NCBI GenBank assembly: GCA_963664825.1
Contig: OY761614.1
Location: forward strand, 3,328,001 to 3,392,000
Origin: an uncultured Holophaga sp.
GTDB lineage: Bacteria; Acidobacteriota; Holophagae; Holophagales; Holophagaceae
Reading direction: 5' to 3'
DNA length: 64,000 nucleotides
The translations under genes and the position numbers were made by a program. Below, in pieces: positions 17,396 through 48,556 of the stretch. A model generated the notes under the pieces. The model saw only the letters and a program-made list of their open reading frames with translations. It was not told where the DNA came from and made no database searches. Positions within the stretch are counted from its first letter, which is position 1. Each line of letters opens with the position of its first letter.

Positions 17396-17398
17396 GAC

Positions 17399-20463: not shown

Positions 20464-20543
20464 GACGGATCAGCCCATGAAAGTCGGAAGAACTTGTCGA
20501 GAAACAATCTACCCTCGTGGATGCTTGAATAAATTTAGTTCCT

Positions 20544-25301: not shown

Positions 25302-25885
25302 ATGTGCTCCTTGCGCACCAAGCCACCGGCGCCCTTCACATAGCGCTGGCCATAGCTGGTGACGGCCACCCCCTCGGCGTCGAAGAACAGGCGTTCGCCC
25401 TGCTCACACATATGCCCGATGAGACGGGCCGGGACCCCCGCCACCATGGCATAGGGAGGCACATCCTTCGTCACCACCGCTCCCGCCGCCACGAAAGCGC
25501 ATTCATGCAAGGTGACGCCACACACGATCGTTGCGTTGGCGCCGATGGAAGCGCCCCGCTTGACCCGAGTGGAGGCATAGTCCTCGCTGGTGCAGCGGGG
25601 AAACAGGCAGCGTGGCGTGGTCACATTGGTGAAGACCATGCTGGGCCCGCAGAAAACGTAGTCTTCCAGGATCACACCTTCGTATAGGCTGACGTTGTTC
25701 TGGATCTTGCAGAAGTCGCCAATGGTGACGCCGTTGGCCACCATCACGTTCTGGCCCAGGATCGTGTTCCGCCCGATCACGGCCTTGGGATAGACATGGC
25801 AGAAGTGCCAGACCTTGGTGTTCTCGCCCAACTGGGCGCCGTCATCCACCACGGCGGTGGGGTGGACGAATACGGGCTTGTTCAT
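25298..25885 (-). CDS. wbpD: UDP-GlcNAc3NA N-acetyltransferase (WbpD/WlbB)
   Basis: [28 protein letters not shown] and [11 protein letters not shown]. Confidence 0.9.
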
Positions 25886-25893
25886 GTGATCTC

Positions 25894-27231: not shown

Positions 27232-27257
27232 GATTGACTCCAGGCAGAAGTGGGCCG

Positions 27258-28304
27258 TCAGCGGCCAAGGGGGACGCCTTCGGGCACGTAGTGGACGTGC
27301 ACCTCTCGTCCCGTGAAGGCGGATTCGTAAAGGGCGTTGATGATCTCCACGGATTTGCGACCCTCCAGGCCCGCCAGCATCGAGTTGCACCCGCTATCGA
27401 GGGATTCCAACACATGCTGGTAGTAGGGCAGATGCCCAAAGCCATAGACATTCGGAGGATTGGTAATGAGGTTATGGATCTCGTCATCCTCGGGTCGGGG
27501 TTCCGCAAAATTCCATGTGATGGGCTTGTTCACCGAGAAGCCGCCGATCACCACGGAGGCCTTCTCACCCAGCACGGAGATGCTGCCCTCCAGGTCCTTG
27601 GGGCGGGTCGCGGTGGTGGCCTCCACCACACCCAGGGCCCCAGACTTGAACTTCAACACCGCCACGCCGGTATCATCGGCTTCGATGTCCACCAGTCGCG
27701 TGGCCACGTAGGCCTTCACACTATCGACGGGACCCATGAGCCACTGCAGCAGATCGATGTGATGGCTAGCCTGATTGGTGAGCACACCGCCATCCATCTT
27801 CCAGGTACCACGCCAGGCGTCCTGGTCGTAGTAGGCCTGTTGACGAGCCCACCGGATGCGCACCGTGCCCAGGACCATCCTGCCGAAGCGCCCTTCCTCC
27901 ACGGCCTTCTTGAGGGCCACGATGGGGGGATTGAAGCGGTTCTGCTTCACCACGAATAGCTTGGTGCCATGAACCTCGCAGACCTCGATGAGGCGATCGG
28001 CGTCCCCCAGAGTGAGGGCCATGGGCTTTTCAACAATGAGCACGGGCACATGGGGAGCCAACAGGCAGCCCAGAACGGGGTGCAGCCCTGAATCGGTGAG
28101 GATGGAGACAATATCAGGTTTGAGGGCCTTCACCATCTCCAAGGCATCGGTGTAGGCCGGAGCTCCATAGGCCTCTGCCGCAGGGCGTACACGGTCTTCC
28201 TGGCAATCGCAAACGCCCACAAGCTTCAATTCAGGAATCAGGGCGATCACCTTCAGGTGGCGATCGGAGATTCGACCACATCCCACTAGGGCAATGGTTC
28301 TCAT
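27258..28304 (-). CDS. wbpB: Gfo/Idh/MocA oxidoreductase (WbpB/WlbA-like UDP-GlcNAcA 3-dehydrogenase)
   Basis: GCGRIS, VEKPMAL, VVKQNRFN and WRGTWKMDGGVLTNQASHHID. Confidence 0.85.
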   Translation of the reverse strand: MRTIALVGCGRISDRHLKVIALIPELKLVGVCDCQEDRVRPAAEAYGAPAYTDALEMVKALKPDIVSILTDSGLHPVLGCLLAPHVPVLIVEKPMALTLGDADRLIEVCEVHGTKLFVVKQNRFNPPIVALKKAVEEGRFGRMVLGTVRIRWARQQAYYDQDAWRGTWKMDGGVLTNQASHHIDLLQWLMGPVDSVKAYVATRLVDIEADDTGVAVLKFKSGALGVVEATTATRPKDLEGSISVLGEKASVVIGGFSVNKPITWNFAEPRPEDDEIHNLITNPPNVYGFGHLPYYQHVLESLDSGCNSMLAGLEGRKSVEIINALYESAFTGREVHVHYVPEGVPLGR

Positions 28305-28343
28305 ACAGGTCCTCCAAACAAGGAGTCGAAGACAGGAAGACGA

Positions 28344-30518: not shown

Positions 30519-30630
30519 AGCGTCATGACCTGGATTGGGACAGCCCCGATGGGATTCAATTTTATTGAAAATAAAATAAACATACACTCTCACCCGCGGG
30601 GTAATTTTTTTTAATACGCCAATAAGATGA

Positions 30631-31725
30631 TTAGTCCTTCAGATAGTGAATTTCCGCAGCTGTCAACCCGATGGACGTGACCGCCGAAACCGTCGGGAGC
30701 AACATGCTCATGACCCGGTTGAAGCGCACGAGGGTGCCGGCATCGACATAGACGATGTCCCGAGGGTTGAGGGGAAAGTGGTCGGCCAATACCATGGCCG
30801 TGGGATTACGGGCGTCCAGGTGGTAAACGTCGACCGCATTGGCAGCAACTCCCTGGCGGATGACATAGATGGAACGGGCATCCGCCGAGAGGGGTTGGAT
30901 GCCGCCTGCCTCGGCGAGAGCTTGGGCCAGCGAAAGGCTTCCATGGACGAGGGGCATCGTTCCGGGCTTTACCACCTCCCCCAGCATGTATACGGGTTCT
31001 TCCTTGGCGTTGGGAACATGCAGGGAATCTCCGTTTTTAAGGGTGATCTGCCCGATGCGATTGCCTGCGGTCATCAAGGCCTGGAAATCCAGCCTCCAGG
31101 TTTTCTCCCCCCGGGTGAGGATCAAGCGGCTGTCGTCGGCGGTGGGGAGGAAACCGCCCGCGCGGTTCACGGCTTCGGCCAAGGTGAAGGGCACATCCGT
31201 GATGGTGTAGACGGCGGGCGTCTTGACCTCGCCCCCTACATACACTTTCTGGGACCGGTAGGCGACGACCTTGACATCGACCTGAGGCTTTTGAAGCACC
31301 TTCCCGAGCATGGAAGTGAGCTTGTCGCGCACTTGAGATGGCGTCAGCCCACCCACGGCGACCTTGCCGATATAGGGGAAATAGAGAGAGCCTTCCTCAT
31401 CGATCACCATGCCCGTGGCCGTATCGGTGCGGTATTGGCCCAAAGGCAACGTGATCTCGGGGTGATCCCACACGGTCACCAGCAGGACATCCTGGGGGCC
31501 GACACGGTAAGGGACCTGTTTCTCGTGAAGAAGTTCACCGAGGGGACCCGGGTCCAGGGTGCGAGACTCTGGGCCCTTCAACACGTGATGATCGAGGGAA
31601 CGAAGGGTTACGTTGAGCCCATCCATTCGGGTGGTGGTCACGTGGGCACCGGGTTTCACATTCAATTTCATCCCTGGAGCGGTGCAGGCATTCATCAGCA
31701 CCAGGGTGCCCAGGGCAATCCCCAT
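30631..31725 (-). CDS. wza: Polysaccharide export outer-membrane lipoprotein
   Basis: Lipobox MNAC, YRVGPQDVL.VTVWDHPE, SLBB repeats and C-terminal RFNRVMSMLLPT; start uncertain. Confidence 0.92.
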   Translation of the reverse strand: MGIALGTLVLMNACTAPGMKLNVKPGAHVTTTRMDGLNVTLRSLDHHVLKGPESRTLDPGPLGELLHEKQVPYRVGPQDVLLVTVWDHPEITLPLGQYRTDTATGMVIDEEGSLYFPYIGKVAVGGLTPSQVRDKLTSMLGKVLQKPQVDVKVVAYRSQKVYVGGEVKTPAVYTITDVPFTLAEAVNRAGGFLPTADDSRLILTRGEKTWRLDFQALMTAGNRIGQITLKNGDSLHVPNAKEEPVYMLGEVVKPGTMPLVHGSLSLAQALAEAGGIQPLSADARSIYVIRQGVAANAVDVYHLDARNPTAMVLADHFPLNPRDIVYVDAGTLVRFNRVMSMLLPTVSAVTSIGLTAAEIHYLKD

Positions 31726-32016
31726 GTCCCACCGGAGGCCTTCACCTCCCAGGTTGCGCCCAGGACAGACAGACTGAACATCGGCGAAGTTGGCCGCGGA
31801 ATGGGGTTTGGGGCGGGAAAATGGGTGCACGACCACCTCCGACAGGGGAGCGCATGACAACCTTCATTTAGGGGGATAGCCCGCACAATATCGTAGCTTC
31901 TAGAGATATTGCAAGAGAATTCCCAATCCAGCTCGTGAGGGAATATTGATATTTTTGGGTACAGGAAATCCGAGCCCCCCTCGATTCACAGGGCCCTTAT
32001 CGTCCGAAGGCTAGCC

Positions 32017-34194: not shown

Positions 34195-34953
34195 CTATAG
34201 CCATTCCCCGAATTGCTCCCGGTAGGTGCGACTCAGGGTCAGCTTGGTGCCATCCCTCATGATCACGAGGTGATCGCCGCTGGTCCAAGGCTGGAGTTCC
34301 TTGATGCAGTCCAAGTTCACGATGGCCGAGCGATGGATGCGACGGAACTGATGGGGGTCCAGCCTAGCCAGCAGGGCGGCCATGGTCTGCCTCAGCAGGA
34401 AGGAGGTGCCCTCCACGTGCAGCCGGACGTAGTTATCCTCGGCCTCGACCCACTGAAGGGCCGTGGTGCGGACCAGGAAATGCCGGTCCCCCTGGCGCAC
34501 GAGGAGGCGGTCCAACCAGGGGCGTTCCTGGCGAATCCCCGACAGGAGAGCATCCAGGTTCTGTTTGGAAGCGCCGTTGGCGGCGGCCATGGCGCACCAG
34601 CGGCGCGCCCGATCCAAGGCCTGCTGAAAACGCTCGGGATCGAAGGGCTTGAGCAGGTAGTCCAGGGCATGCACTTCGAAGGCCTTCAGGGCGTGCTGGT
34701 CGAAGGCCGTCACGAAGAGCGTGGTGGGCATCCGGTCAATGCCCACGGCCTCGATTACGCCAAAACCGTCCAGTTCGGGCATCTGGATATCCAGGAACAC
34801 CAGATCGGGTTTCAGTTCCTCGATGGCCTTCACGGCCTCGAGGCCGTCGCCGCATTCGCCTACCACGTTGAAATCCGCCTCCTTCTCCAGGAGATGGAGG
34901 ATCCGCTGCCTCGCCAAGGACTCGTCATCGACCACCAGGGCCTTGAATGTCAT
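34195..34953 (-). CDS. LytTR family response regulator
   Basis: REC domain (VDDE, LDIQMP, DYLLKP) + LytTR domain (FRRIHRSAIVN, LSRTY). Confidence 0.95.
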   Translation of the reverse strand: MTFKALVVDDESLARQRILHLLEKEADFNVVGECGDGLEAVKAIEELKPDLVFLDIQMPELDGFGVIEAVGIDRMPTTLFVTAFDQHALKAFEVHALDYLLKPFDPERFQQALDRARRWCAMAAANGASKQNLDALLSGIRQERPWLDRLLVRQGDRHFLVRTTALQWVEAEDNYVRLHVEGTSFLLRQTMAALLARLDPHQFRRIHRSAIVNLDCIKELQPWTSGDHLVIMRDGTKLTLSRTYREQFGEWL

Positions 34954-36038
34954 GAGACCTCCAGGTTTTCCAGCGTATCGATGGGGAAGCGAAGCACCAC
35001 CAGGGTGCCCTTCCCCGAGGCCCCCAGGATATCGATGCGCTGCTGGCCCTTGTAGAGGAGGCTCAGGCGGGCCCGGACATTGGAGAGGCCCACGCCCTCC
35101 CGCCCGGCCACAAAGCCCTCGCCATCGTCCTGGACTTCGAGCACCAGGAATTCAGAATCCCTCCGGGCCCGAACGATGAGGGTGCCCCCCTGGGAACGGC
35201 CCGAGAGGCCATGCTTCAGGGCATTCTCCACCAGGGGTTGCAGGATGAAACTCGGCACCCTGGCGCCCATCAGTTCCAGCGGGATCTCCACCCGCACCTG
35301 TAGGCGATCCTGGAAGCGCACCCGCTCGATGGCCAGGTAGGCTTCGATGAAGGCCAGTTCCTTGCGAAGGGGCACGAGCTGGTCCGGTGAAGCCTCCAGC
35401 GTCATCCGGAGGAAATCCCCCAGGCGCCCGATCATGCGATCGGCCCCCTCGGGATCCGAATGGATGAGGGCCGAAACGGAATTCAGGGTATTGAAGAGAA
35501 AGTGGGGTCGCAGCTGCATGCGCAGGGCCAGGTTTTGCGCCTCGGCGAAGCGGGCCTCCAGGCGGGCGGCCTCCACCTCCCGGGCCCGGAACTTGCGATA
35601 GATGCGGTGTCCGTGCAGCGAACCCAGCAGCGCCCACATGAAGATCAGATTGATGTGGAAGTAGTTGCGGTAGAAGTAGGGCATCCGCGCGAAGTAGCCC
35701 AGGGCGTGCCCCTCCTTATCCCATCCCCCTCCGAGGAAGGTCTGGCTGATCAGGTAGGCGAAAAAGAGCCCCAGCGCCGCAACCGCCACGCTGGCTCCCA
35801 GGTGCAGCCCCCAGGTGGGCCATTCCCGCAGCGAGAAGGACTCGATGGGCCGATGATCCGAGAGCTTCACCAGGACGAGTCCGAGCAGGCCCCACACCAG
35901 ATTCTGGAGGGCGTTCAGGACCAGCAGGCGCAGCACCTCCGGGTGCTCGGCCATGGCGATATCCCAGGAGGCCATGTAGAGCGCCAGGAGCGCCCAGGCG
36001 CCCCAGTACCAGATCCATTTCCGATCGCGCTTCGCCAT
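34950..36038 (-). CDS. LytS/YehU family sensor histidine kinase
   Basis: 4 TM helices, QLRPHFLFNTLN, LQPLVENALKHG and GVGLSNVRARL. Confidence 0.93.
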   Translation of the reverse strand: MAKRDRKWIWYWGAWALLALYMASWDIAMAEHPEVLRLLVLNALQNLVWGLLGLVLVKLSDHRPIESFSLREWPTWGLHLGASVAVAALGLFFAYLISQTFLGGGWDKEGHALGYFARMPYFYRNYFHINLIFMWALLGSLHGHRIYRKFRAREVEAARLEARFAEAQNLALRMQLRPHFLFNTLNSVSALIHSDPEGADRMIGRLGDFLRMTLEASPDQLVPLRKELAFIEAYLAIERVRFQDRLQVRVEIPLELMGARVPSFILQPLVENALKHGLSGRSQGGTLIVRARRDSEFLVLEVQDDGEGFVAGREGVGLSNVRARLSLLYKGQQRIDILGASGKGTLVVLRFPIDTLENLEVS

Positions 36039-36112: not shown

Positions 36113-38086
36113 CTAGCGGATCTCCAGTTCCGCAGCAGCCCCCGAACGGCCGACGAGGCCCTTGGCATCCTCCAGGTGGATGCGGTAATGGACGCGGCCG
36201 CTGACGGGTCGGGGGTCCACCACTTCCAGCTCCTGGAAGGGCCCCTGGACCTCGGTCCAGAGGCGTTCGCCCGGGGCCTTGCGATGCAGGAAGGCGCGGA
36301 AGCCCTCGGGGAGGGCCGTCAGCTTCACCTGTACGTGGCGGAAGGGCGTCTCCACCAAACGGAGCATGGGCACAGGAGGTTCGGGTACAGGCGGCGGGCT
36401 CACGCGGGTCTCGGCGCCCGGGGAGAAGGCGCTGCGCACCCCCTCGGGAGAGACCGACACCAGGCGGTAGCGGTAGGTCTCCCCGGGGTCCACCCAGATA
36501 TCCGTGAATTCCCGGGCAATGGCTGGGAGGGGATCGCCGATCACCAGTTCGAGGCCATAGGAGGCCCTCTCCTTATCCTCGGAGCGCCTCATGGAGCGCA
36601 GCACCAGGAACTGGGCCGTGCGTTCTTCCGGCGCCGAAGGACGGAACCGAAGCAGCACCTTCCCATCGGCCCCCTCCAAACCCTGGAGGATGGGCGGCTG
36701 GGGCGCGCTCTGGTCTTCCCGCACGACACTTACGGCTGCGCAGGGATCACTGGCCAGATTATCGAAGGTGATGGCCGATACGCGGTAGCTGAGGGTGCCG
36801 CTCACGTCATCGGTCAGCAGATCCTCCAGTTTTCCCCCCTGGGCCAGATCCTTGCCCAGGCGCGTCCAGACGCCCTCCCCCTGGCGCCGCTCCACCAGGA
36901 AACCCGCCAGGGGCGTTTCCGGCAATTGCCAGGTGAGGACGTTCCCCAGGGGACTGGCCTTCACCTCGAGCCCCTTAGGCGCTCCGGGACGTTCCTTGGA
37001 GCGCGCGATCACATAGGCACGGGCCCCGGGATCGCCCACATTGCCGTCCGCATCCACCACGCGGAGCCGGTAGTAGTAGGTGGCCCCTCCCCCCACGGAG
37101 CCGTCTCGAAAATTCGTGGTCGCCGGGACCAGGGGCTTGGAGGTGATGAGTTCGAAGGGACCGCTGGGGGTGAGCGAGCGCTCCACCAGGATGCCCGCGC
37201 TGCGAGGCGTCGGACTGGGCTTGAATTCCAGCAGATTGACTCCGGCCTCGGAGCGCACGGAGAGTTCCGTGGGGGGCCGCAGGGTGGCGGGATCCGGGAA
37301 GAATACGCCCACGGCAGCGTCGGGTCCCCGGCGCCCGAATACATCCACGGCCCAGACCCGGTATTCGCTGGCCCGATCGCCGGGAGCCTCGCGGTCCTCG
37401 AAGGCTGGCGTCGCGGGGTTCCAGATCCCCAGGATATTGGGGCGCTGGGTGAGCACCTGATCCCCCCGCTGGATGCGGTAGTCCACGATGGGAATCTCGC
37501 CCCCATCCACAGGAGCCCAGAAGAGTTTCACGGATTCCTTGGCCGCCTCGGCCCGCAGACCGGTGGGCACCTGCGGGAGGGGCGAGATCAGCCCCCCATC
37601 CACCTCCGCGCTCACCAGGCGCGGTCCCACGGCTTTACCTGCACCGTCGAGCCCCACCACCGTATAGGCGCGACGGCCCAAGGGCAGGCCCGCAAGTGCG
37701 CAGCCCAAACCCAGGGCCCGTCCCAGGGCGGGACGGTTCCCCGCCTCCACCAGCGCGTTCAGGGCGAGCATGCGGCGCTTGCCCTCGTCCTTTTCCGCCA
37801 GCATCTCGCCATACAGCTTCCCGGCTTCCAGGGCCTCCTCCGGGGGCAGGGCCTTCAGGGCCTCCGGGTCTCCGGCCTTCAGGGCGGGCACCCACACCTG
37901 GCCCCCCGCATCCAGCACGCGCCAGCCTCCCGCGGGCAACGGCACCTTCATGGGCGGCCAGATCAGCAGGCGCACCCTCCCTTCTCCTTCCGAGACCGCC
38001 AAGAGGGCCCCGTCCGGGGCGACCTTCCGGGAAGGCGCCTGGGCGGCAAGGGCGACACTCAGACCCATCAGTAGCAGTGCGCGCAT
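36113..38086 (-). CDS. Exported multi-fibronectin type III domain protein
   Basis: Signal peptide; repeated P..P..L..W..Y.I.R ... YRV.AVD FN3 pattern (about 5 copies). Confidence 0.8.
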   Translation of the reverse strand: MRALLLMGLSVALAAQAPSRKVAPDGALLAVSEGEGRVRLLIWPPMKVPLPAGGWRVLDAGGQVWVPALKAGDPEALKALPPEEALEAGKLYGEMLAEKDEGKRRMLALNALVEAGNRPALGRALGLGCALAGLPLGRRAYTVVGLDGAGKAVGPRLVSAEVDGGLISPLPQVPTGLRAEAAKESVKLFWAPVDGGEIPIVDYRIQRGDQVLTQRPNILGIWNPATPAFEDREAPGDRASEYRVWAVDVFGRRGPDAAVGVFFPDPATLRPPTELSVRSEAGVNLLEFKPSPTPRSAGILVERSLTPSGPFELITSKPLVPATTNFRDGSVGGGATYYYRLRVVDADGNVGDPGARAYVIARSKERPGAPKGLEVKASPLGNVLTWQLPETPLAGFLVERRQGEGVWTRLGKDLAQGGKLEDLLTDDVSGTLSYRVSAITFDNLASDPCAAVSVVREDQSAPQPPILQGLEGADGKVLLRFRPSAPEERTAQFLVLRSMRRSEDKERASYGLELVIGDPLPAIAREFTDIWVDPGETYRYRLVSVSPEGVRSAFSPGAETRVSPPPVPEPPVPMLRLVETPFRHVQVKLTALPEGFRAFLHRKAPGERLWTEVQGPFQELEVVDPRPVSGRVHYRIHLEDAKGLVGRSGAAAELEIR

Positions 38087-38093
38087 CACGACC

Positions 38094-41000
38094 TCACATC
38101 TTCACGGTGAAACAGATATCGCTCAAGGGCCACGGCAGATCCACGCAGCAGGAGGCCGAAAGGGAGATCGGCAGCGCCTCGGCGTGGATATTGGCACCCA
38201 CCCCCGCGCTCACGCAATGCCCGAAGGCGCATACTCCCGCCTCCAGCCCCGCGCCGAAATCGCCGATGATCTTAGGCTGGCGGGTGATCTGGAGCCCCAT
38301 ATCCATCCAGCCCTTGGCGTAGGCCTTCACCCCCACACCGGCTCCCATGTACCAGGTGGAACCGCCCCCCACGGCCAGGCCGACCTCGTTGCCTAGCATC
38401 AGGTAGGCGTTGGAAGAATTGCCCATCAGCCGGCCCACGATGCGCTGGCCATCGCGGTTGCCGGCGTAGATGTGCCAGTTGCCCCCGCCGAAGTGCAGGC
38501 TGCAGGCGGCTGCCTGTTCGCTCTGGCCCAGATCCAGGGCCACCACATCGCCCATGAAACTGAAACCGCCCCAGATGCGCCCATCGAAATTGCCACCGCT
38601 GTATTCCAGACAGCCCCTCAACGGAGCATTGCCCGAAGGGTTGGGCGTCAGCAGCCAGGCGCCGAAATCCATGCGGGCGGCCCCGGAGCTCTTCACCACC
38701 AGTTGACCATCCAGGGTGTAGATGAAGCCATCCGAGGAGCCCAGACGGGCGCCTGCCAGGAAGAGCGTATCGCCCTTGAAGTCGGGTTTGGCGTTGACGA
38801 TGGAGCCGCCATCCTTGAATACATCCAGGCCGAAGTTGTAGGCGAAGCCGCCGCTCAGCCTGAACAGGGAGACGACCTCCGGGTAGATCACGATTCCGCT
38901 GGGCCCCAGGGGCACGTCCACGCGAGTGGCGAAGTAGTCCTTGCCATTTGCGTAGCCCAGCACGAACTGGGCCTTCACCGGCGAGCCGCCGAACATGCTC
39001 AGATCGACCTCGCCGCTGAAGCGGTTGCTGGCCATGGCCGGCGCGCCGCCCGCGGTGGCGCCGGGCTGATAGTTCGTGTTGATCTTGGCCTTCAGGGAAG
39101 GCGATCCCAGAGGGAAGGCCACCTCCGTATTGAAGGGATCCACCTTCACATCCGAGGCCGTGAAGGCGCCGGGCGCACCGGCAGCCTTCAAACCGAAGTT
39201 CATCGTCACCGGCGTGCCCGGAATGACGGGGTTCTCGGAGAGGCGCAGCTTGGCGTTGACCTTCAGGCTGAGGGGGTTTTCCGGGGTGGCGCCGCCCGTG
39301 AGCACGACATTCTGCAGGTCGGCGGGCGTCGGCCCCAGGTAGCTGGCGCGGTTGAGGGTCACGGTGGTGCTTCTGGCCCCGTCATCCCCGAAATACATCA
39401 GACCGTCCAGGCCAAAGCCCACGCGATCCGCATCGAAGATGGCCAGAGGCTTGCCCTCGGCTTTGAGGGAAATGCGCGCCCGGCCCTGCATGACCCAACC
39501 GCCATCCTTGATGGGGATGACCTGAAGGTTCAGCGCGTCCAGAGCCATGGGGCCGCCGGCCAGGGTGGGCCGGGAGGCCGCGTGCAGCTCGTCCAGATCC
39601 AACTTGTAGCCATCGGTGGCCACCAGGGAGGCATTGCCCTTGATGGGATCCTTGAACCAGGGGGAGCGGATCTCGACGTCCTTGTATTTGACGGTGTAGT
39701 TGCCGGTCTGGCCCGTGCCCTCGAAGTGGATCTTGCCCACAGCCATGTGGCCTAGGACGCGGTAATCCGTCTGCCAGGGCCCCACATCCACGGAGCCCTT
39801 CACGCCCAGGCCTTCCAGAGTCCAGTCGGTGGGATGGGGCAAGGGCTTGACCCATTCCCCGCCCTGCTGGATCACGATGGGATTCAGCGTCACCGTGCCC
39901 AGACTCACGCCCACCCACTCGGAAGACTTGCCCCCCTTGGGGTCCACGCCCTCCGTGCCGGAGAGGTCGATGACGATGTTCTCGGCCGAGAAGGCCCAGG
40001 GCGTTGGCCCGAGGCGAGTCGTTTCCAGCTTGAGCCCCTTGGCGATCCAATCGCCTTGGGTCGTGACGGGCGCTTCGGCAACCCATACGGGCTGAGGGCT
40101 TCCCATGGTCATGAGCACCATGCTGGTATCGATGGGGCTCAGGCTGAGGGTGGCCATCAGATCCTGGGGAGCATTCTTGTCGGCAATGGCGCCCCGAACC
40201 CTCTTAAGGGTGCCGAGGACGCCGGGGCCCTTGTAGGCCTGATTGGGCTGGATATCCATGGCCCCCTTGGCCACCGTGACGCCATCCACCTGCCAATCGC
40301 TGAATTTGAGGTCGATCGGAAAGGGCACCAGGGCATCGGAAGCTGTGCCCGCCCGCAGATTGAAGACCAGCAGGCCCTTGCCGCTGGCCCGCTGCATGGG
40401 GCCATCGGGGGTGAGCGTCAGGTTCTTGCCCAGATTGGTGACGGGGAAGATGCCGCCCTTGGTGGGGAAGAAGAGATTGCAGATCACGCCATCCTTGGCA
40501 GCCTTGACCTCATACACCCCCCGGGTCTCCACCCGGTAGGGGGGCTGGAGATGGGTCGGATCCTGCAGAAGGCCGGTGGAGGCCCTTTGGAGGCCCAGAC
40601 TGGACGTCAGATTGGCCACCTGATGGAGGGGCACGTAGGCCACTTGGCCGGGAGCCTGGCTGGGATTGAGCAGGCCCAGGTGCACCTGGGGTTTCCCGGT
40701 CCCTCCCTTCCCGAGGGTATCGACCAGGGTATGGACGAGGCGCGGCGATATGGGCGTCGAAAGGGCATGGCCTGCGGCCAGATGCCCGAGGTTCGTCAGG
40801 TCCTCCGCATCGAGATCGCCGGTCTTTTCCGGAAGCACATAGGCCTCCACCGTGGCGATATGGCGCCCGAGGGAATCCACCGGCAGCGCCGGAGAATTCA
40901 TCACTTCCTCCCCCAAGAGCGGGTTCTGGCAGGTTCTCGCTTCCTCGGCATTGAGTCCGAGGCGCTGGGGGGACATCACTGTCACTTCCCGGGAGCCCAC

Positions 41001-44000
41001 CTGGCGCTCGTCCACCTTCCAGATCACTCGCACGTTGCCGCGCCCGTAGTACTTGATCCGAGTCTTGGCGGAATAGAACAGATTGCAGGTCGTGGTGCTC
41101 GGCGCGTTGGGCCCCTCCGGCACAGGCGTCACATTCACGGCATGGGCGCTGGCCGAGGAGGCCGTCAGCCCCACATGCGCCGTCTGGCTGGCGAGGCTAG
41201 GCCTGGCGCTGGCAGCCTTCTCCCGTGGCTTCCCTACAGGAGCCGTCTGGAGAGCCTTGGGACTCTGGGGCGCCCCCCCCTGCCCTTGCAGGGGCTTCGT
41301 CCCAGAGGCATCGTCCTTCGGAAAATCCAGCTGGGCGGAAACCAGATGCACCGGCAGGAGCGTGCAGGGGTCCGTCCGGTTGTAGACCATGAAGTCCTGG
41401 CAGTACACCACGTACGCCCGGGCCATGGCCTGGGCGGCGCTGGGCCGCATATCCAGGAACTCTCCCCTGTGGGTGCCGAAGGCCACAGCCACTTCAAACT
41501 TGGGTTTGGAGGGTCCAGACCGCGCCACCAGGGGAGTCAGTTTGGGAGACTTGGCAGCCTCCCCGCCACGCAGGGCGGTGAGGCCACTTGCGGAAAGCCG
41601 CGTGAAAACGCCCTGGAAGGATTGGGTGGGCGTGAGGGCCTGGGAGACCTCGCTCACGGTATCGCCGCGGACCATATCCTCGTCGGAGAGCACGAAGACC
41701 TTGACCCGATAGGTGGCGGCGCGGGCGTAGGTGTGGCGGTATTCGCCAGCTCTCACCACGTACGCACTGTAGTAGTCGCACCCGCTCGCGTACAGCGAGT
41801 CCACGGGGCTGCCATGGAAGGGCTCCAGCGTCCCGTCTCCCCAATCCAGGAACACGTTCTTGAAGGTGACCCGATCCACCGTCGAGACATCGATCCCGCC
41901 CTGCCCGCTGCTCACGGAAACAGACCCACCGGAGAGGGCACCGCTGCTGCCGACGGAGAGAGGCGTCACCGAGACCGAGGGCATGCCACTGCCACCGGAA
42001 TATCCCTTGGATTTCACCACCGCCGGAATGAGCCGGTAGGGCACCCTCGCACCGAGATCGAAGGTGCCGGAGAGCAAGACTTCATCGGAGACATAGGTGT
42101 TCAGATCCGCGCTCGTCTTGGGCTTGGCAGGAGTTCCCTCACCAGCCTTGGCGCCCACCTTGGCAGCCAGGACCCCCCTCAAGGGTTTGCTGCTGAGGGT
42201 GGTGGAGGTCAGAAGCCCCATCAAGGGCTTGCCCCCCTCATGGGCCGCCCGATTGGGCTCGATCGTCACTTTCGGATCACTCTGGCTGATGGTGCAGCCC
42301 TTGGGATTAACGCCCTGGGGCGTGACGGGCATGCGGATGGGCCAGACCTCGGAGCGGGAGACCTCGGCGGCGATGGTCTGGTAGACCTTCGGCATGTCCG
42401 CAGCCTTGGTCGGGGCCTGCCCTTGCGTGGAGATGGGCTTATCCAGGGCGGGGGAATGCCCTGCCCCCGGAAGGGTCCCGGAACCCGCGGGCTTGAATCC
42501 CAGGGGGGGTTTCCCGCTCTGGGCCTGGAGCGTCCCACTCTGGGCATTGATCGTCCCGGCCTGGGCCTTGAGTGTCCCGGGCCTGGCCTGTAGGGATTTC
42601 AAGGTCATGGCCCTGGAAGTCGGGGAGGCCGGTTCCCGGGAGGGCCCCGGTCTCAGGAGTGTGAGCGAATTTTCGGAGGGTTTTGGCTCAGGGGATGTCT
42701 TCTGGGCCTTGAGTTCCTCGGCGGAGAGGCAGGGATAGTTGCGGAAACCCACCACCTGCCAGACCACATCGGCCTTCTGGCGCATGATCGCCGGGATATC
42801 CGGGTCCGGCGTCAAGGCCGGCACGTGGGCGGTCGTGAGGGCAGCCTGCTGTTTCGAGGACGCAGCGCCTGGGGCAGGCGCCCTGAAGGCTTTCGTGGTC
42901 TTCCCGGAGGGATTGACCTGGGCCTTTGCACCGCTACTGGCCGTAGCCGGGGCCTTCCCTGCCTGGGAGGCCGCGATGACCTTCCCCCCTGAAGAGGCTA
43001 GGTTCGGGAGCGTATGCGTTCCCCGGAGGCTGCCCAGCTCCTGCACGAAGGCTGGGGTCACATCGAAGGTGTTCCGGTTCCCGGGGATGGGGACCGTCTT
43101 CAGGAGACTCCCATCCTTGGCGTTGAAAAACCTCAGTTCGAAGGATTCCGAAGTGCCTGGATTCTTCTCCTTCCAGGTGAACTGCGTCGCGTCGCGCAGC
43201 ACCGGCAGATCATCGCTCTGGAATTCCCCGCTGGTGTTGACGCCGATGAGGGAATAAGAAGGCGCGCCGAGGGTGATCTGCGAGAGATGGAGCTTCTGGC
43301 CCTCGGTGCAGGCCAGCACCTTTTCCTTGCGGCGCCCGGCCCCGGCGTCCAAGACAAAACCGAGCCTCTTGCCACCCGCGGCGGGGACGAACGTGGAGAA
43401 TCCGGAGCCGACCCTGGTGATCTTAGCCAGATCCACGGGAACAGCGCGGAACACCGCTCCCCCGAGGGGCTGTTTGCCCTTGCCATCGACCTTCGTCAGC
43501 CCCAGGGCGCCCGCGGGCTTGGGGGTGGGCGTCAGGGTCCCCTGGAATTTGGGCCCCGGCTTCCCGCCGGGGAGGCTGCCCGACATGGGCTGGGTGGGAA
43601 CCACGGGGGAGATCGAGGCGGCAAGGGCCGTCGGGGCGGAGCCAGGCCGGATCGCCAGGGTCGAGGCGGCCTTCCCCAGGGGCACGATCTGCAGATGCGC
43701 GCTGCCTGAAGGGCTCCCGCCAGCCTTCCGGGCCTGGAAGACCCGGGTTCCCGGTTGGGCGGTCGGAGCGATGAAGACCTTCACCACCGCCCGCTCGGGG
43801 GACAACACCTTGGGAGCGCCCAGCACGGCGATATCCTTGCCGAGGTTCAGGGTCATGTCAGCGCTGAAGCCGGTGCCAGTGAGGATGAGTTCCACTTCCT
43901 CTCCCGGCTTGGCATTGACCGGGCTCAGGCTCTGCACCACAGGTCCCTTGGCTTCGCCCCCCAGCTTCACGAAATAGCGAATGACGGGCACCGGAAAGGC

Positions 44001-44915
44001 CATGCGGGGCTGGAGCACCTTCAGGGTCACCTTGTGCTCCCCGGCCACATGGGTGGGGAGTTCGATCTGGAATTCCCCAGGCACCGTGCTGGCAAGCGTG
44101 TGATGCCCCTGGCGTTGAAGCGTGCGAACCGGCACGGAGAGGGGGGTAACCAGGGCCTGGCCGCTCCGAAGCGTCGTCAGCTTGGCGAAGCCCAGCTGCT
44201 GGCTCACGGCCCGCTGCACCTGGCCATCCACCACCCACTCGGCCTGCAGCTGGCCCGTACCCTCGTATTTGAGATCGGCATAGGCCACCAGGCCCGATGC
44301 CCCCTGGCTCACTGAGCGTTCGGTCGTCCCGTCCTCCCAGCGCAGCGCCAAGTAAGAGATGCCGAAGGGCGCGCCGGGCCCCTGCTGCCCCACCGGCAGA
44401 TTCAGGGTGAATTCCCGGAGGGGTTCCACCCCCGCATCCTGCACGGTGACGGTGTAATCGCCGGCCTTGAGGAAGGTGTGGGTGAGGCTCGCGCCTCCCT
44501 CCACGGGGGCCGTGCCATCCCCGAATTGCCAATGGACACGCTTGCCCAGGGCCTCCTCCAGCGTCAGGACCACGGCCTTACCGGGCAGCGGGATTGCGGG
44601 AGTCGCGAGCACCCGCCGAGGTTCCACCACCGTCACACTCTGCTGCGAGGTGGTTGTGCCCACAGTCGCCTTCACCTGGAAGGTGCCCGCGCTGCGGTAG
44701 ATGTGTGTGGCGGTACTACCCCCCACCTGGGGGGGCCTGCCGTCCCCGAAATCCCAGTTCACCCCGCCTCCAGCACCCGAGAGTTTGAAGGCCGTTTCCA
44801 GATCCACCCGGGGGCGGGCTGTACTGACCGTGAGGGTCCGCACCAGCACGAGAGGACCGTGCTGCGCCTGGGGCAGGACGGCGACAACCAAGAAGGGAAG
44901 CATCATGGAGCGCAT
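38094..44915 (-). CDS. Giant (2,273 aa) exported protein: PKD-PKD-unknown domain-IPT/TIG-like, Pro/Ala/Lys linkers, long beta-rich C-terminal region
   Basis: Single ORF with GGAG ribosome-binding site; WDFGDG, WQFGDG and DWGDG PKD motifs; signal-like N-terminus. Confidence 0.8.
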   Translation of the reverse strand: MRSMMLPFLVVAVLPQAQHGPLVLVRTLTVSTARPRVDLETAFKLSGAGGGVNWDFGDGRPPQVGGSTATHIYRSAGTFQVKATVGTTTSQQSVTVVEPRRVLATPAIPLPGKAVVLTLEEALGKRVHWQFGDGTAPVEGGASLTHTFLKAGDYTVTVQDAGVEPLREFTLNLPVGQQGPGAPFGISYLALRWEDGTTERSVSQGASGLVAYADLKYEGTGQLQAEWVVDGQVQRAVSQQLGFAKLTTLRSGQALVTPLSVPVRTLQRQGHHTLASTVPGEFQIELPTHVAGEHKVTLKVLQPRMAFPVPVIRYFVKLGGEAKGPVVQSLSPVNAKPGEEVELILTGTGFSADMTLNLGKDIAVLGAPKVLSPERAVVKVFIAPTAQPGTRVFQARKAGGSPSGSAHLQIVPLGKAASTLAIRPGSAPTALAASISPVVPTQPMSGSLPGGKPGPKFQGTLTPTPKPAGALGLTKVDGKGKQPLGGAVFRAVPVDLAKITRVGSGFSTFVPAAGGKRLGFVLDAGAGRRKEKVLACTEGQKLHLSQITLGAPSYSLIGVNTSGEFQSDDLPVLRDATQFTWKEKNPGTSESFELRFFNAKDGSLLKTVPIPGNRNTFDVTPAFVQELGSLRGTHTLPNLASSGGKVIAASQAGKAPATASSGAKAQVNPSGKTTKAFRAPAPGAASSKQQAALTTAHVPALTPDPDIPAIMRQKADVVWQVVGFRNYPCLSAEELKAQKTSPEPKPSENSLTLLRPGPSREPASPTSRAMTLKSLQARPGTLKAQAGTINAQSGTLQAQSGKPPLGFKPAGSGTLPGAGHSPALDKPISTQGQAPTKAADMPKVYQTIAAEVSRSEVWPIRMPVTPQGVNPKGCTISQSDPKVTIEPNRAAHEGGKPLMGLLTSTTLSSKPLRGVLAAKVGAKAGEGTPAKPKTSADLNTYVSDEVLLSGTFDLGARVPYRLIPAVVKSKGYSGGSGMPSVSVTPLSVGSSGALSGGSVSVSSGQGGIDVSTVDRVTFKNVFLDWGDGTLEPFHGSPVDSLYASGCDYYSAYVVRAGEYRHTYARAATYRVKVFVLSDEDMVRGDTVSEVSQALTPTQSFQGVFTRLSASGLTALRGGEAAKSPKLTPLVARSGPSKPKFEVAVAFGTHRGEFLDMRPSAAQAMARAYVVYCQDFMVYNRTDPCTLLPVHLVSAQLDFPKDDASGTKPLQGQGGAPQSPKALQTAPVGKPREKAASARPSLASQTAHVGLTASSASAHAVNVTPVPEGPNAPSTTTCNLFYSAKTRIKYYGRGNVRVIWKVDERQVGSREVTVMSPQRLGLNAEEARTCQNPLLGEEVMNSPALPVDSLGRHIATVEAYVLPEKTGDLDAEDLTNLGHLAAGHALSTPISPRLVHTLVDTLGKGGTGKPQVHLGLLNPSQAPGQVAYVPLHQVANLTSSLGLQRASTGLLQDPTHLQPPYRVETRGVYEVKAAKDGVICNLFFPTKGGIFPVTNLGKNLTLTPDGPMQRASGKGLLVFNLRAGTASDALVPFPIDLKFSDWQVDGVTVAKGAMDIQPNQAYKGPGVLGTLKRVRGAIADKNAPQDLMATLSLSPIDTSMVLMTMGSPQPVWVAEAPVTTQGDWIAKGLKLETTRLGPTPWAFSAENIVIDLSGTEGVDPKGGKSSEWVGVSLGTVTLNPIVIQQGGEWVKPLPHPTDWTLEGLGVKGSVDVGPWQTDYRVLGHMAVGKIHFEGTGQTGNYTVKYKDVEIRSPWFKDPIKGNASLVATDGYKLDLDELHAASRPTLAGGPMALDALNLQVIPIKDGGWVMQGRARISLKAEGKPLAIFDADRVGFGLDGLMYFGDDGARSTTVTLNRASYLGPTPADLQNVVLTGGATPENPLSLKVNAKLRLSENPVIPGTPVTMNFGLKAAGAPGAFTASDVKVDPFNTEVAFPLGSPSLKAKINTNYQPGATAGGAPAMASNRFSGEVDLSMFGGSPVKAQFVLGYANGKDYFATRVDVPLGPSGIVIYPEVVSLFRLSGGFAYNFGLDVFKDGGSIVNAKPDFKGDTLFLAGARLGSSDGFIYTLDGQLVVKSSGAARMDFGAWLLTPNPSGNAPLRGCLEYSGGNFDGRIWGGFSFMGDVVALDLGQSEQAAACSLHFGGGNWHIYAGNRDGQRIVGRLMGNSSNAYLMLGNEVGLAVGGGSTWYMGAGVGVKAYAKGWMDMGLQITRQPKIIGDFGAGLEAGVCAFGHCVSAGVGANIHAEALPISLSASCCVDLPWPLSDICFTVKM

Positions 44916-44958
44916 GGATCACCCGGAGCGTTAGGAACTGTGGTGCATTGCTAGACCT

Positions 44959-46167
44959 TCACTTGCGGCGGGAGCGTTTCTTCGAGAGCGGCAGGATCTC
45001 CAGGCGCGCGCTTCCCGCAGGACCGCCCTTCCCCCGGGATGTGCGCAGGATGCGGGCGCCGCACTTGGCTGTGGGCGCGACGAAGACCTGAACCAGAGCC
45101 TGTTCGGGTCCGATCAGACGAATGGGGCCCACGGGAGCCATGTCGCGGCCCAGATACAGCTCCATATCCGGCGTGAACCGGGAGCCCAAGATCTGCAGCT
45201 CCACTTCTTCGCCGGCCCGCACCCGCCGGGGCAAGACGCCCTTCAGCACGGGGCCCTCCGGATCGGCTCCGAGGCTCACGAAATAGCGAATCACGGGCAC
45301 TTCAAAGGCCAGGCCCGGCTGAAGCACCTTCAGGGTGACCTGATGTTCGCCGGGAACATTGGTGGGCAGGGAGAGCTGGGGCCCGCCCGGATTCACCTGT
45401 CCGCTCTTGAGGGTGATGCGATTGGCAAAGGTCAGTTGCTGAGAGAGGTTGCGGAAGACGACCCCATCCACCAGCCACTGGGCCTGGAAGAGGCCCGTGC
45501 CTTCGTATTTGAGATCGGCGTAGGCAGATAGGCCCGTCTCCCCCTGGTTCACCGTGCGCCGGAGGGTGCCATCCTCCCAATGCAGGGCCACGTAGGAGAT
45601 GCTGAAGGGCGCGCTGGGGCCCGTGGCCCCCACCACGACCTGAGTGCCGATGACGCGGCGTCCATTGGCAGAGGTATCCACCGCACTGACGGTGTAGACG
45701 CCCTGGCGCTGGAAGGCATGGGTGGCCGTGAGCGTATCGGTCATAGTGGGCGCAGTGCCATCGCCGAAATTCCAGGTGATGCCTCCCGTGGAGAAGAAGG
45801 CCTGGGCCTGGAGGGTGATGGGCTGGCCCGCCCCGGGGGCCGCGGGACTGTAGCGGATCCGGCGGGGTTCGGCCACGAAGACGGCCCTCTGGACCGTCGT
45901 GGTGATCCCGGTGGTGGAGCTCACCGTATAGATGGCCCGCACATTGAAGGAACCCGCCGCGGAAAAGGTGTGAGTGCTGACGGCCCCCCCGGCGCTGGTG
46001 GGAGTGCCATCGCCGAAATCCCATGTGACCGAAAAGGGCACCACGCCACTGAGGGTGAAGGAGGTCACCGCGTCCACCCGGGGTTGGGCGGGGTTGGCGC
46101 TGAGCAGGCCTTGAGCCTGAAGGGCCGGACTGACGATGAGGGCGAGCAGGAGCAGGAATGGGCGCAT
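44959..46167 (-). CDS. Exported PKD-PKD-unknown domain-IPT/TIG-like protein; paralog of the giant protein's N-terminus
   Basis: Signal peptide; WDFGDG and WNFGDG; AYADLKYEGTG shared with the giant protein. Confidence 0.8.
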   Translation of the reverse strand: MRPFLLLLALIVSPALQAQGLLSANPAQPRVDAVTSFTLSGVVPFSVTWDFGDGTPTSAGGAVSTHTFSAAGSFNVRAIYTVSSTTGITTTVQRAVFVAEPRRIRYSPAAPGAGQPITLQAQAFFSTGGITWNFGDGTAPTMTDTLTATHAFQRQGVYTVSAVDTSANGRRVIGTQVVVGATGPSAPFSISYVALHWEDGTLRRTVNQGETGLSAYADLKYEGTGLFQAQWLVDGVVFRNLSQQLTFANRITLKSGQVNPGGPQLSLPTNVPGEHQVTLKVLQPGLAFEVPVIRYFVSLGADPEGPVLKGVLPRRVRAGEEVELQILGSRFTPDMELYLGRDMAPVGPIRLIGPEQALVQVFVAPTAKCGARILRTSRGKGGPAGSARLEILPLSKKRSRRK

Positions 46168-46178
46168 AGGGTCTCCGC

Positions 46179-48098
46179 TCAAAACGAGAAGTTGAGCGTC
46201 AGGGAGGCCCGGCGGTCGGCCTCGGGAAGGGTCTGGACGCGGGTGTAGCGGAAGCGCAACGCCAGCACGGCCTGCCCCCGATGGAAGGCCTTCGCCAGGA
46301 AGGGCGTGAGGTAATACTGCAGGGCGGCATCAGCATTGGTGCTGGTCACCGCCGATAGGCCCTGGGCCTCCATGCGGTTATAGCCGCCGTTGAGGGCGAG
46401 ATTGAGCCAGGTCTTCACCAGGGTGATATCAGCGTTCAGGAAGGCGCTGGCCACCTTGGAATCGGCACCAGTCCCATCCTGGGTGCTCTTGGAATAGGAG
46501 AAGGTCGGCGCTAGGCGGATGCGGTCCGGTTCCTGGAAGGAGCCCCCCAGGATCAGGGTGGTGCTATGGCCCGTCGTCGCCGATGCGCCCGTGCCCTCGA
46601 GCTTGTCGAACTGAACGCTGAGGGCCAGGGCTCCCTTGGCCCCCATGGCCCAGTCCAGCCCCGTGAAGACGCCCTCCCGCTTGCTATTGGCGAAGGGCAC
46701 AAGAGCCCCTTGAGGCGTGCCAGCCTCCTGTTCCGCATGGCTGAGACCGGCCTTCAGTGTGATGCCCGTCGTGGGCGTCCAGTGGGCGTCCATGGTCTGG
46801 ACATCATTGCTGGCGCGGGTCTCCAGGGGATCCCCGCCGGGGTTATTGCGCTCGGAAGTGAGGCTGGCATTGAGGGACCAGGCCGGATTCAGGTTCAAGG
46901 AGAAGCCCCCGTCCAGGCCCCGACGATCGCCTTCCATCACCGGGTACCCCAGGGTGCCGAAGTCCCGCCCGATCTGCCGGTACGAGGCCTGGACACTGTA
47001 GCTCTTCTCGTTCCAGGCCCCGCCCACGCGCCAAGCCTGGTCCTGGACCTTGCCGAGGCTATCGTCCACATCCTTGTCGTAGTCGGTGCGGGCGTACTCG
47101 CCATTCAGGCTGAGACGATAATCGAAGAGGGAGGCCTCCAGGGTCAGGGCTCCCGTGCTGCCCTCCCGCCGGGTCATGTAGGAGGCCGCGCCGATATTGA
47201 CTCCCTGGGAGGGGTCATCGCGGCCCGTGAGGAGCACCAGCTTGGATTTCACCCGGCCATCCATCCAGGCGTAGCCCACCGCCCCCCCGAAGAGTTCGGT
47301 GGCCCGGCCGGGCCAGGCCAGGCCCTTGAAACCGTCCAGGGTTTGAGTGTTGACGGCAAAGACATGGGCGTAGAAGGTCCGGTCATCGTAGAGGTAGTCC
47401 ATGCCGCGCCTCCCGGCGCCCCCCACGGTGAATTCCGATTCCTGGAGGGCCATATCGCCCACCTGGGCCCGGTGATCCCGGTAGGTATAGAGGCCCCGCA
47501 ATTCCCCCACGGCCCAGTGGGATTGGCCCGCCGTGGGCTGGTCCTGGTAGGCCACCCGGGTATTGAGGCTCAGGTGATGCTCGCCGGATTCCAGCTCGTA
47601 GCCCAGCGCTACCTGTCCGCTGCTGAAGAAGGTGCGTTCGCCTTCCACCTTCTGGGAGCGATAGACCACCTGCTCCAGGCTCGCCTCCACATGGAAGGGC
47701 ACCTTCTGCTTGAGCTTGGAGGCCTGGCCAGGCGGCTCGGCGGCCACGTCCAGGCTCGCCAGGGATCCGGGGGCGTTTTCCGGGAGGTACGTGATGCCCT
47801 CTCCCCCCTTGAAGGCCAAGTAATACTGGATCTGCCGCCCACCGATTTCACCGGCCGGGAGATCGGCGACCATGCCTCCGGAATCGGCCCGCAGCGCCAG
47901 GCTGCGGAATTCCTCCTCCCCCACCGCGCGGTAGAACACCATGGCCCACACCACGCCCGGAGGCGCCTGGAACGTGAAGCGCACGGGTTCGCTGGGCTTC
48001 GAGGGCGGGAGGGCCTTGAAGGAAGGCGACTGGCCCTGGGCGCAGAGCGCGCAGGCCAGTGCCGAGGCCATGGATAGAGTCCGGAACCTCATCGGCAT
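46179..48098 (-). CDS. Probable outer-membrane beta-barrel protein with N-terminal Ig-like domain
   Basis: Signal peptide, long run of amphipathic beta-strands, C-terminal ASLTLNFSF (terminal Phe beta-signal). Confidence 0.75.
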   Translation of the reverse strand: MPMRFRTLSMASALACALCAQGQSPSFKALPPSKPSEPVRFTFQAPPGVVWAMVFYRAVGEEEFRSLALRADSGGMVADLPAGEIGGRQIQYYLAFKGGEGITYLPENAPGSLASLDVAAEPPGQASKLKQKVPFHVEASLEQVVYRSQKVEGERTFFSSGQVALGYELESGEHHLSLNTRVAYQDQPTAGQSHWAVGELRGLYTYRDHRAQVGDMALQESEFTVGGAGRRGMDYLYDDRTFYAHVFAVNTQTLDGFKGLAWPGRATELFGGAVGYAWMDGRVKSKLVLLTGRDDPSQGVNIGAASYMTRREGSTGALTLEASLFDYRLSLNGEYARTDYDKDVDDSLGKVQDQAWRVGGAWNEKSYSVQASYRQIGRDFGTLGYPVMEGDRRGLDGGFSLNLNPAWSLNASLTSERNNPGGDPLETRASNDVQTMDAHWTPTTGITLKAGLSHAEQEAGTPQGALVPFANSKREGVFTGLDWAMGAKGALALSVQFDKLEGTGASATTGHSTTLILGGSFQEPDRIRLAPTFSYSKSTQDGTGADSKVASAFLNADITLVKTWLNLALNGGYNRMEAQGLSAVTSTNADAALQYYLTPFLAKAFHRGQAVLALRFRYTRVQTLPEADRRASLTLNFSF

Positions 48099-48112
48099 GG
48101 GCACCCCTTCTT

Positions 48113-48556
48113 CTAGCGTTCGGAAAGATGCAGGGGCCCGTCCAGGCGCACCCGATAGTTGCCTGTGCCCCAGGAGGACTTGGCGGTGATCTTCAGGATC
48201 AGGACCTGGGCCTTCTTCAACTTGAGATCCTTGACGACGCGCTTGGTGGCTGAATTCCCCAGGACATCGAAGACCTTGACCAGGCTGTTCCACTTGCCGT
48301 CGAGGAGCTGCACCTCGTAGTCGATCATGGTGCCGCTATCGGTCTGCATATCCAGGGTCAGGCTCAGCACACCGGGCCCGGCATCGAACGTGTAGTATTT
48401 CTCCAGGGATTCCTTGGCCGCGATATCCTCGCCCACCTCCCGGGAAGCCAGGGGAATGGGATGGTCCTGGGGCCTGTCCCGGGCGATGGCCACGGCGGAC
48501 AGGCCGCAGCACAGGCAGACAAGGCTTGAGCGGAAAAGCGCGCGGAAGCTGGACAT
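48113..48556 (-). CDS. Small exported beta-sandwich protein (PPC-like)
   Basis: AGGAG ribosome-binding site, signal peptide, YYTFDAGPG..LTLD ... GNYRVRLDG pattern. Confidence 0.65.
   Translation of the reverse strand: MSSFRALFRSSLVCLCCGLSAVAIARDRPQDHPIPLASREVGEDIAAKESLEKYYTFDAGPGVLSLTLDMQTDSGTMIDYEVQLLDGKWNSLVKVFDVLGNSATKRVVKDLKLKKAQVLILKITAKSSWGTGNYRVRLDGPLHLSER

Follow-up and report, generated by a model that had tools for sequence, protein, structure and literature searches.

What would five neighbouring genes for exported-looking proteins do together, when one of them codes for a predicted outer-membrane beta-barrel and another for a giant of 2,273 residues? The question is raised by a locus at positions 36113-48556 of a 64,000-nucleotide stretch of DNA (the window) from an uncultured Holophaga sp. 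of the Acidobacteriota (contig OY761614.1, positions 3,328,001 to 3,392,000). The five genes, A to E in the direction of transcription, all lie on the minus strand. An initial annotation, made from the letters and their open reading frames (ORFs), had proposed a five-gene operon in which a dedicated barrel exports or anchors the giant, with a shorter paralog as adaptor. Judged by sequence comparisons, the core appears instead to be the barrel protein B together with a protein carrying a domain here called X. The giant D and the FN3 protein E appear to be optional. Barrel and partner may form a two-part anchor in the outer membrane.

The barrel protein B

Gene B (46179-48098) codes for 639 residues ending in Phe, a predicted outer-membrane protein and core part of the locus. 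Its AlphaFold2 (AF2) model had a predicted local distance difference test score (pLDDT) of 82. It contains an all-beta, Ig-like domain (residues 26-117, at 47748-48023) and 26 strands (residues 135-638, at 46185-47696), in agreement with the annotated barrel with N-terminal Ig-like domain and terminal Phe. Links averaged 10.1 residues after odd strands and 3.8 after even strands. Strand 1 would thus start in the periplasm, since the long loops follow odd strands and the short turns even ones.

No Pfam or NCBIfam family was found for B. The cut-off of the generic OMP_b-brl family was just reached by one of 18 barrel homologs (29.0 vs 28.7). The best fold match of the model was MtrB (Z 19.4, root-mean-square deviation (rmsd) 5.7, 439 aligned, 11% identity), with the next rows at Z <=15.7, and Foldseek placed ushers on top (template modelling score (TM) 0.36-0.39). 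A barrel profile run against PDB sequences found no solved relative of the barrel part. Model and searches support the dedicated barrel of the annotation, without a named family. The profile matched 184 representatives at E<=1e-30, some of them merely repeats of the Ig domain, and the relatives include Desulfuromonas and Nitrospirota. Searched against plasmids, the giant core and two barrels had no match. Conservation of B was highest at residues 204-420, whose strands and loops are mostly untouched by the modelled partner described below, except via loops. The B-type Ig-like domain was also seen as 7-20 repeats in unrelated proteins of 950-4,000 aa (P0080, P0081, P0084 and others), one of which, when scanned, had PKD and beta-helix domains.

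Domain X, the constant partner of the barrel

Gene C (44959-46167) codes for 402 residues in the order PKD-PKD-X-IPT-like, and Pfam, the X alignment and complex prediction mark it as the putative core partner of B. The same series opens gene D (38094-44915), and C shares 46% identity with the D N-terminus. Two PKD domains each in C and D were above the Pfam cut-off, and the IPT-like domains were found below it only, so that the annotated PKD-PKD-X-IPT series was recovered in both. X is a module of ~120 residues that follows the PKD domains. In C (residues 178-303, at 45259-45636) it is a predicted lumen-filling plug, and in D (residues 170-319, at 43959-44408) it contains an insertion of ~30 residues. 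X had no PDB sequence match at E<=10 and no Pfam match better than E 0.0096.

In 67 loci, 50 barrels were seen, two of them without room for a neighbour. All of the other 48 had X adjoining or fused: within 2.5 kb downstream in 42, in the same protein in five, and as a gene directly upstream in one (L085, genome G154), where X and barrel are two genes in different frames. Among 401 Acidobacteriota genomes, the barrel profile matched 44, of which 35 at E<=1e-12, and X matched 61, of which 36 at E<1e-15. A strong X match was present in 34 of the 35 strong-barrel genomes, and the barrel of the exception lies 104 bp from a contig end. In the two further strong-X genomes, the barrel was weak or at a contig edge. 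Five weak X matches were fetched, and each lay directly behind a divergent barrel. The strong counts exclude a weak giant match in G172 (1e-12), a partial FN3 match in G320, and barrel matches confined to the N-terminal Ig domain. Co-occurrence across genomes and phyla, on which the annotated system depended, is supported. The role of minor adaptor for the short paralog was not borne out, the giant being present in 19 of the 401 genomes (E<1e-30) and X in 36.

The fusions had the order repeats-X-linker-barrel (L084, L086, L087, L093, L096), or PKD-X-linker-barrel in P0139. Some barrel-holding genomes also had X genes distant from the barrel (L078-L081, L095). Long repeat arrays preceded X in L084 (~750 aa), L085 (~1,400 aa) and both giants of Deinococcus psychrotolerans (up to ~2,000 aa). 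Directly upstream of one barrel gene (L040:10377-17891, G043) lies a series of about ten small genes with exported-looking products and CARDB, Ig-like and beta-helix domains; they are possible extra clients.

Predicted barrel-X complex and its orientation

Complex prediction for B residues 24-639 with C residues 100-395 gave scores of 0.91, 0.90 and 0.91, and the best of three controls 0.00. Of 157 solved complexes 116 attained the score mark, as did 2 of 215 mismatched pairs; these counts hold only roughly for the alignments made here. At least 82% of contacts were common to the runs, with a partner pLDDT of at least 77. Recall of a close homolog is unlikely to explain the score, because the searches gave neither X nor the barrel part a solved relative by sequence. 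The prediction supports binding of B and C, and with it the physical link between barrel and partner that had been annotated.

The 100 partner contact residues were distributed over X (79), the IPT-like domain (16) and the second PKD domain (5). On the barrel side, 63 of 82 strand contacts were of the polar, lumen-facing parity vs 19 of the lipid parity. X is thus very probably placed inside the barrel lumen in this model. Residues 270-272, near the C-terminal end of X, contacted barrel residues 568, 592, 594 and 636, at a depth of 0.13-0.27 from the periplasmic side. Long loop 5 of the barrel was contacted by C residues 192-195 and 288, which in an Ig-type fold would be nearer the N-terminal end of X. 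The likely polarity, to be held with less assurance than the lumen position, is an outward N-terminal PKD end and a periplasmic C-terminal end. The fusions agree with a periplasmic C-terminal end of X, because what follows X has to arrive at strand 1 from the periplasmic side. Export of the giant's body by the barrel, one half of the annotated alternative, becomes improbable, since the orientation derived from the contact list would put the post-X chain in the periplasm.

The giant D and the FN3 protein E

The head of D is followed by low-complexity linkers, a second, degenerate X-like copy (residues ~1267-1368, at 40812-41117; X profile E 2.5e-7, profile positions 36-100) and a conserved all-beta C-terminal core of ~800 aa (residues 1470-2273, at 38097-40508). 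D has 16 Cys, and its full-length homologs measure 2,226-2,299 aa. Gene E (36113-38089) codes for 658 aa from a GTG start, with an ATG one codon further on. It consists of an N-terminal domain and five evenly spaced FN3-type motifs (fn3 below the Pfam cut-off only), as expected from its annotation as a multi-FN3 protein.

Giant core matches were found in 20 of the 401 genomes, 19 of them at E<1e-30. All 19 giant-bearing genomes had an FN3 gene and an X match, and the one further strong FN3 genome is 64% complete. In the loci, FN3 followed all 29 giant ends with room, and a barrel was present for all 17 giants with at least 6.5 kb of upstream sequence. Metagenome loci at ~28% identity kept the order barrel, X gene, giant, FN3. 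A barrel gene behind the FN3 gene, not at the head of the cassette, was seen once (L059:4285-5440). In two assemblies the giant gene is in two reading frames (L002:12950-19857, L093:12465-17593).

The AF2 model of the D core (804 aa) was all beta (pLDDT 81, predicted TM-score 0.49) and forms an amphipathic beta sheet. Fold searches gave no match above TM 0.17, with porins making up the lists and no groove protein among the matches listed. The last 21 strands are amphipathic, with means of 2.16 for the hydrophobic face and -1.3 for the polar face. Six of them have fewer than 8 residues, and their links lack long/short alternation, unlike those of a membrane barrel. By Atlas features the core resembles DUF6603 clusters (0.95), with recognition below the mark and the family on 23% of cluster members; the DUF6603 hidden Markov model (PF20248) had no match in 23 giants or 5 genomes. 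Against PDB sequences, the giant had only PKD/IPT or chance matches. A search for longer giant homologs covered 4,025-5,000 aa and returned mostly IPT-repeat proteins.

Extent of the unit and neighbouring genes

The five ORFs are separated by gaps of 14, 11, 43 and 7 bp (A-B-C-D-E). All five N-termini have a basic start and a hydrophobic stretch by a hydropathy script, and the annotated signal-peptide-like character was confirmed to this extent. No lipobox was found in A-E by a simple regular expression. Walker A and CxxCH motifs were likewise absent from the five proteins, and no POTRA, two-partner secretion (TPS), usher, TonB-plug or autotransporter family was matched, as the annotation had noted for these signatures and for an ATPase. 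GC content at third codon positions was 0.81-0.85 in A-E, similar to neighbouring polA. A sigma-70 promoter scan found 0 vs 1.6 expected, and the terminator signal was not above chance.

Gene A (48113-48556) codes for an exported-looking protein of 147 aa. It was found in none of 40 relatives (single-protein query) and none of five syntenic loci (tblastn), and had no Pfam, NCBIfam or PDB match. In L056, the polA-to-barrel-gene distance is 108 bp and gene A is absent. The layout of the annotated operon therefore holds, with five minus-strand ORFs at gaps of 7-43 bp, and gene A drops out of it as not conserved. The unit consists of the four genes B-C-D-E, a patchy cassette at the polA site.

A His_kinase (PF06580) and LytTR response regulator pair (34195-36038) starts 74 bp past E on the same strand, and was also found behind E in L003, L056 and G406. 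The kinase was present in four of five genomes. The pair is not part of the unit, because it also occurs without a cassette in genomes of the same genus; in G407 it lies directly behind polA. G172 likewise has the polA-kinase site without a cassette, and in G402 neither polA nor E is within 1.5 kb of the kinase. In G172 (L109), just ahead of the kinase gene, the polA 3' end is present in two copies (1-249 and 1332-1418) spaced by ~1.1 kb, a pattern like that of an integration site. In the window, the cassette sits at this same polA-kinase site.

Elsewhere in the window, positions 15877-31860, mostly on the minus strand, hold a likely polysaccharide export cluster, in which the ORFs at 28344-31860 look Wza-like and Wzc-like. 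Lower-GC stretches lie at 4001-8000 and 18001-20000.

Related loci in Deinococcus and Bacteroidota

The annotation pointed to clusters of barrel, FN3 and giant proteins in other phyla, and such clusters were found in Deinococcus and Persicobacter. In Deinococcus psychrotolerans, two plasmids encode a beta protein of 436 or 475 aa that ends in Phe, together with a PKD-X giant and an FN3 protein. The FN3 matches were strong (E 1e-69 and 1e-77) and X matched at about E 1e-9. The match to the barrel is weak and possibly of a generic kind. Persicobacter sp. JZB09 (CP012852) has homologs of the barrel (97.6%, E 2.6e-12), the D core (75.9%, E 2.3e-5, a weak match) and gene E (E 1e-38). By these profile matches, the barrel, giant core and FN3 gene of the Persicobacter locus are homologous to those described here and identically ordered, a TANFOR-type arrangement. 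The Persicobacter giant extends ~680 residues beyond the homologous core. Behind the three genes come one for an exported-looking protein of 2,119 aa, one for 353 aa and another large ORF, which may be a polymorphic array (L106:18557-33329); upstream lies a PorP/OmpA gene. A Bergeyella locus is fragmented and was left out of the comparison.

TANFOR giants of Bacteroidetes carry C-terminal toxins according to the available part of PMC7073777 (Jana, Salomon and Bosis 2020), which proposes their export by type IX secretion (T9SS) and in that part names no barrel. In its supplement, the 13 places covered out of 35 with COG3401 show an unannotated exported gene of 557-581 aa, then a TANFOR giant, then FN3 genes at the next place or the one after, with no toxin domain listed for the giant. 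TIGR02542 had no match in C, D, 48 X-region rows (E<=10) or the Persicobacter giants; a genome scan with it gave 0/21, with the controls silent too. The TANFOR link rests on gene arrangement, and the Persicobacter giant is not a TIGR02542 match.

Proposed mechanism and alternatives

We give a slightly better than even chance to a two-part outer-membrane anchor, in which barrel B closes around X of its partner, the N-terminal repeats stand on the surface and the remainder is periplasmic. All parts would cross the inner membrane by Sec. BAM, the machinery that assembles beta-barrels, would fold the barrel around X, as for complexes of RcsF with outer-membrane proteins (OMPs), and as BAM would do so, no ATPase would be needed. 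The PKD/Ig repeats before X, 1,400-2,000 residues in the longest copies of relatives, would form a surface stalk. Whether the displayed repeats serve in adhesion or scaffolding is a matter of even odds to us. The domain after X could act as a periplasmic stopper on the barrel's own Ig domain and so keep the chain from slipping out. C and D would be alternative plugs for the one barrel of this genome. The D beta core would be a large optional periplasmic module working with an FN3 rod, E, most likely in bracing the anchor or bridging the envelope.

Several observations weigh against this anchor. The narrow barrel profile found a barrel in just 5 of the 19 giant-bearing genomes; of the other 14, four were fetched, and the broad barrel profile found X-barrel fusions in all four. 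The giant was without an N-terminal X in eight metagenome loci (L061, L064, L066, L067, L070, L073-L075) and in four giant-bearing fusion loci (L086, L087, L093, L096), so that no single rule explains the link between giant and barrel. X was also not detected in the first 400 residues of the Persicobacter giants. In P0224 (4,854 aa), X occupies residues 47-165, which would leave almost the whole protein in the periplasm. One partner has PKD-PKD-X and, behind it, a subtilase prodomain with an S8 protease (L083:640-3450, G025), and subtilases are an enzyme type that is often secreted. The complex covers C residues 100-395, and its orientation was derived from a contact list and model strand numbers in place of coordinates. 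Some of the counted loci had served to train the X and broad barrel profiles, the loci were chosen by matches, and kin are not independent.

P0224 and the L083 partner would suit a barrel that is a true translocon. Its targeting module would be X, and the entire partner, the C-terminal body of the giant included, would be exported or mounted outside in a two-partner-like or usher-like way. The complex model would then be a transit state or have the wrong polarity. X genes distant from the barrel would be substrates in trans, the 26-strand lumen is wider than that of an usher, and ushers rank high by fold (FimD TM 0.36-0.39, PapC Z 15.5). We nevertheless regard a translocon as unlikely, with the C-terminal end of X at the periplasmic rim in the model, fusions whose post-X chain has to enter strand 1 from the periplasmic side, no match to a POTRA, usher or chaperone family, and no energy source in the locus. 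The D core could also be a hydrophobic groove that passes lipids or hydrophobic cargo to the plugged barrel, with the FN3 rod bridging the periplasm, like LptA-LptDE or TamB. LptD likewise has 26 strands and a plug, the D core strands are strongly amphipathic, in part short and without loop alternation, and the likely polarity would locate the core in the periplasm. Such a bridge is quite improbable given that a TamB profile of 5 rows aligned to the D core at 0.2% in HHalign, that TamB/AsmA Pfam families had no match in 23 giants, and that the host genome holds a separate TamB gene. Moreover, no groove protein was among the fold matches listed (LptD rows at TM <=0.17), the loci read held no inner-membrane anchor, ATPase or cargo genes, and the giant is absent from about half of the X-bearing genomes.

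We give still less weight to a D core that is a second outer-membrane barrel in a delivery chassis, with TANFOR-type toxins in Bacteroidota and a cargo-less copy here. VIA aligned core residues 457-804 to porin walls (Z 12-13), at an rmsd of 10-15 Å and with short strands. A hydrophobic strand closes several giants, and Phe is the last residue of two from Deinococcus. The ~680 extra residues of the Persicobacter giant and the toxin-bearing TANFOR giants of PMC7073777, as far as its available part describes them, would suit a chassis. D ends at the beta core without a toxin domain and is followed by E, not by an immunity-like gene; the 48 X-region rows and Persicobacter giants lack TIGR02542, and no toxin is listed for the giant in the 13 supplement rows with this arrangement. 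The chance that the barrel with its plug is a gated channel for uptake or sensing, and reports to the adjacent kinase and regulator, is slight. The pair's position behind E here and in three relatives would suit it, and RcsF is a threaded sensor in the available part of PMC4942254. The pair also occurs behind polA without the cassette in G407, with G172 again without a cassette at that site; the distant loci read have the cassette without the pair next to it, and no TonB plug family was matched.

Against these alternatives the two-part anchor remains our preferred reading. A wider form of it, which we rate as probable as its negation, would be a widespread, so far undescribed class of Sec/BAM-dependent surface systems in which a 26-strand barrel is built around the Ig-like module of a partner. 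It would serve repeat stalks and enzymes as a large-pore autotransporter, in split or fused form, and also take partners in trans. Together with the giant beta-core protein and the FN3 rod, it would be the envelope route of TANFOR-type giants in Acidobacteriota, Deinococcota, Bacteroidota and other phyla. If true, diderm bacteria would have a general ATPase-free way to display surface proteins, with the barrel built around the client's folded module, and an unnamed barrel family of 184 representatives would gain a function. For one group of TANFOR-type giants, it would also give a concrete rival to the T9SS hypothesis that can be tested, because homologous loci occur outside Bacteroidota. The minimal pair, a barrel and a partner of ~310-400 aa, is small enough for expression and cryo-electron microscopy, and named cultured hosts are Deinococcus psychrotolerans and Persicobacter sp. 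JZB09.

Comparison with known systems

No description of the system as such was found in the literature searched on TANFOR, DUF6603, 26-stranded barrels and Acidobacteriota PKD/FN3/barrel secretion, which included few subscription papers. As far as searched, the system is real and not in print, and its function is predicted.

TANFOR giants, as the available part of PMC7073777 presents them, are like D in being signal-peptide giants with FN3 and PKD neighbours. TIGR02542, a C-terminal toxin and an immunity gene are features of the TANFOR polymorphic toxins, and this locus has none of them. TonB-dependent transporters have 22 strands and a plug, whereas B has 26 and matched no plug or TonB receptor family. 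The ushers FimD and PapC share with B a wide barrel accommodating Ig-like domains and the top Foldseek rows, at an rmsd of 15-18 Å for FimD. In contrast to chaperone-usher systems, no usher, chaperone or pilin family was matched here, and the modelled B barrel is continuous, without an inserted plug.

Type V secretion is similar in its export by Sec and its lack of an ATPase. The fusions resemble a passenger-linker-barrel protein, and the split forms a two-partner pair such as FhaC/FHA. Type Va barrels have 12 strands and type Vb barrels 16, whereas here 26 strands are predicted, with a folded module of ~120 aa in the pore and not a helix. PF03797, the type Va family, had no match in B, C and D, nor in those fused relatives that were scanned. 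Regarding type Vb, POTRA/ShlB was not matched, the N-terminal domain of B is all-beta, and C and D begin with PKD and have no TPS domain.

MtrB and LptD are 26-strand barrels with a separate partner in the lumen. The same combination as in MtrB/MtrA (PDB 6r2q) is predicted here. PF11854 of MtrB/PioB had no match in B, and was reached by one of 18 homologs at 15.7 bits, against a cut-off of 23. The Mtr partner is a multiheme CxxCH protein; the motif is absent from A-E, and the partner here is an Ig-like module with flanking repeats. LptD was a fold match to B (Z 11.7, rmsd 8.0), with no LptD/LptE family match and no lipobox by regular expression. RcsF, according to the available part of PMC4942254, threads OMP lumens with its N-terminus outside and its C-terminus periplasmic, and is assembled by Bam. 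The predicted complex shares the threaded partner, the probable polarity and the lack of an ATPase. RcsF, a lipoprotein, passes a short segment through general porins, whereas here a dedicated barrel and a folded domain are predicted, and no lipobox was seen. In its modelled form, the system works like a split large-pore autotransporter or a plugged barrel of the MtrAB/LptDE type.

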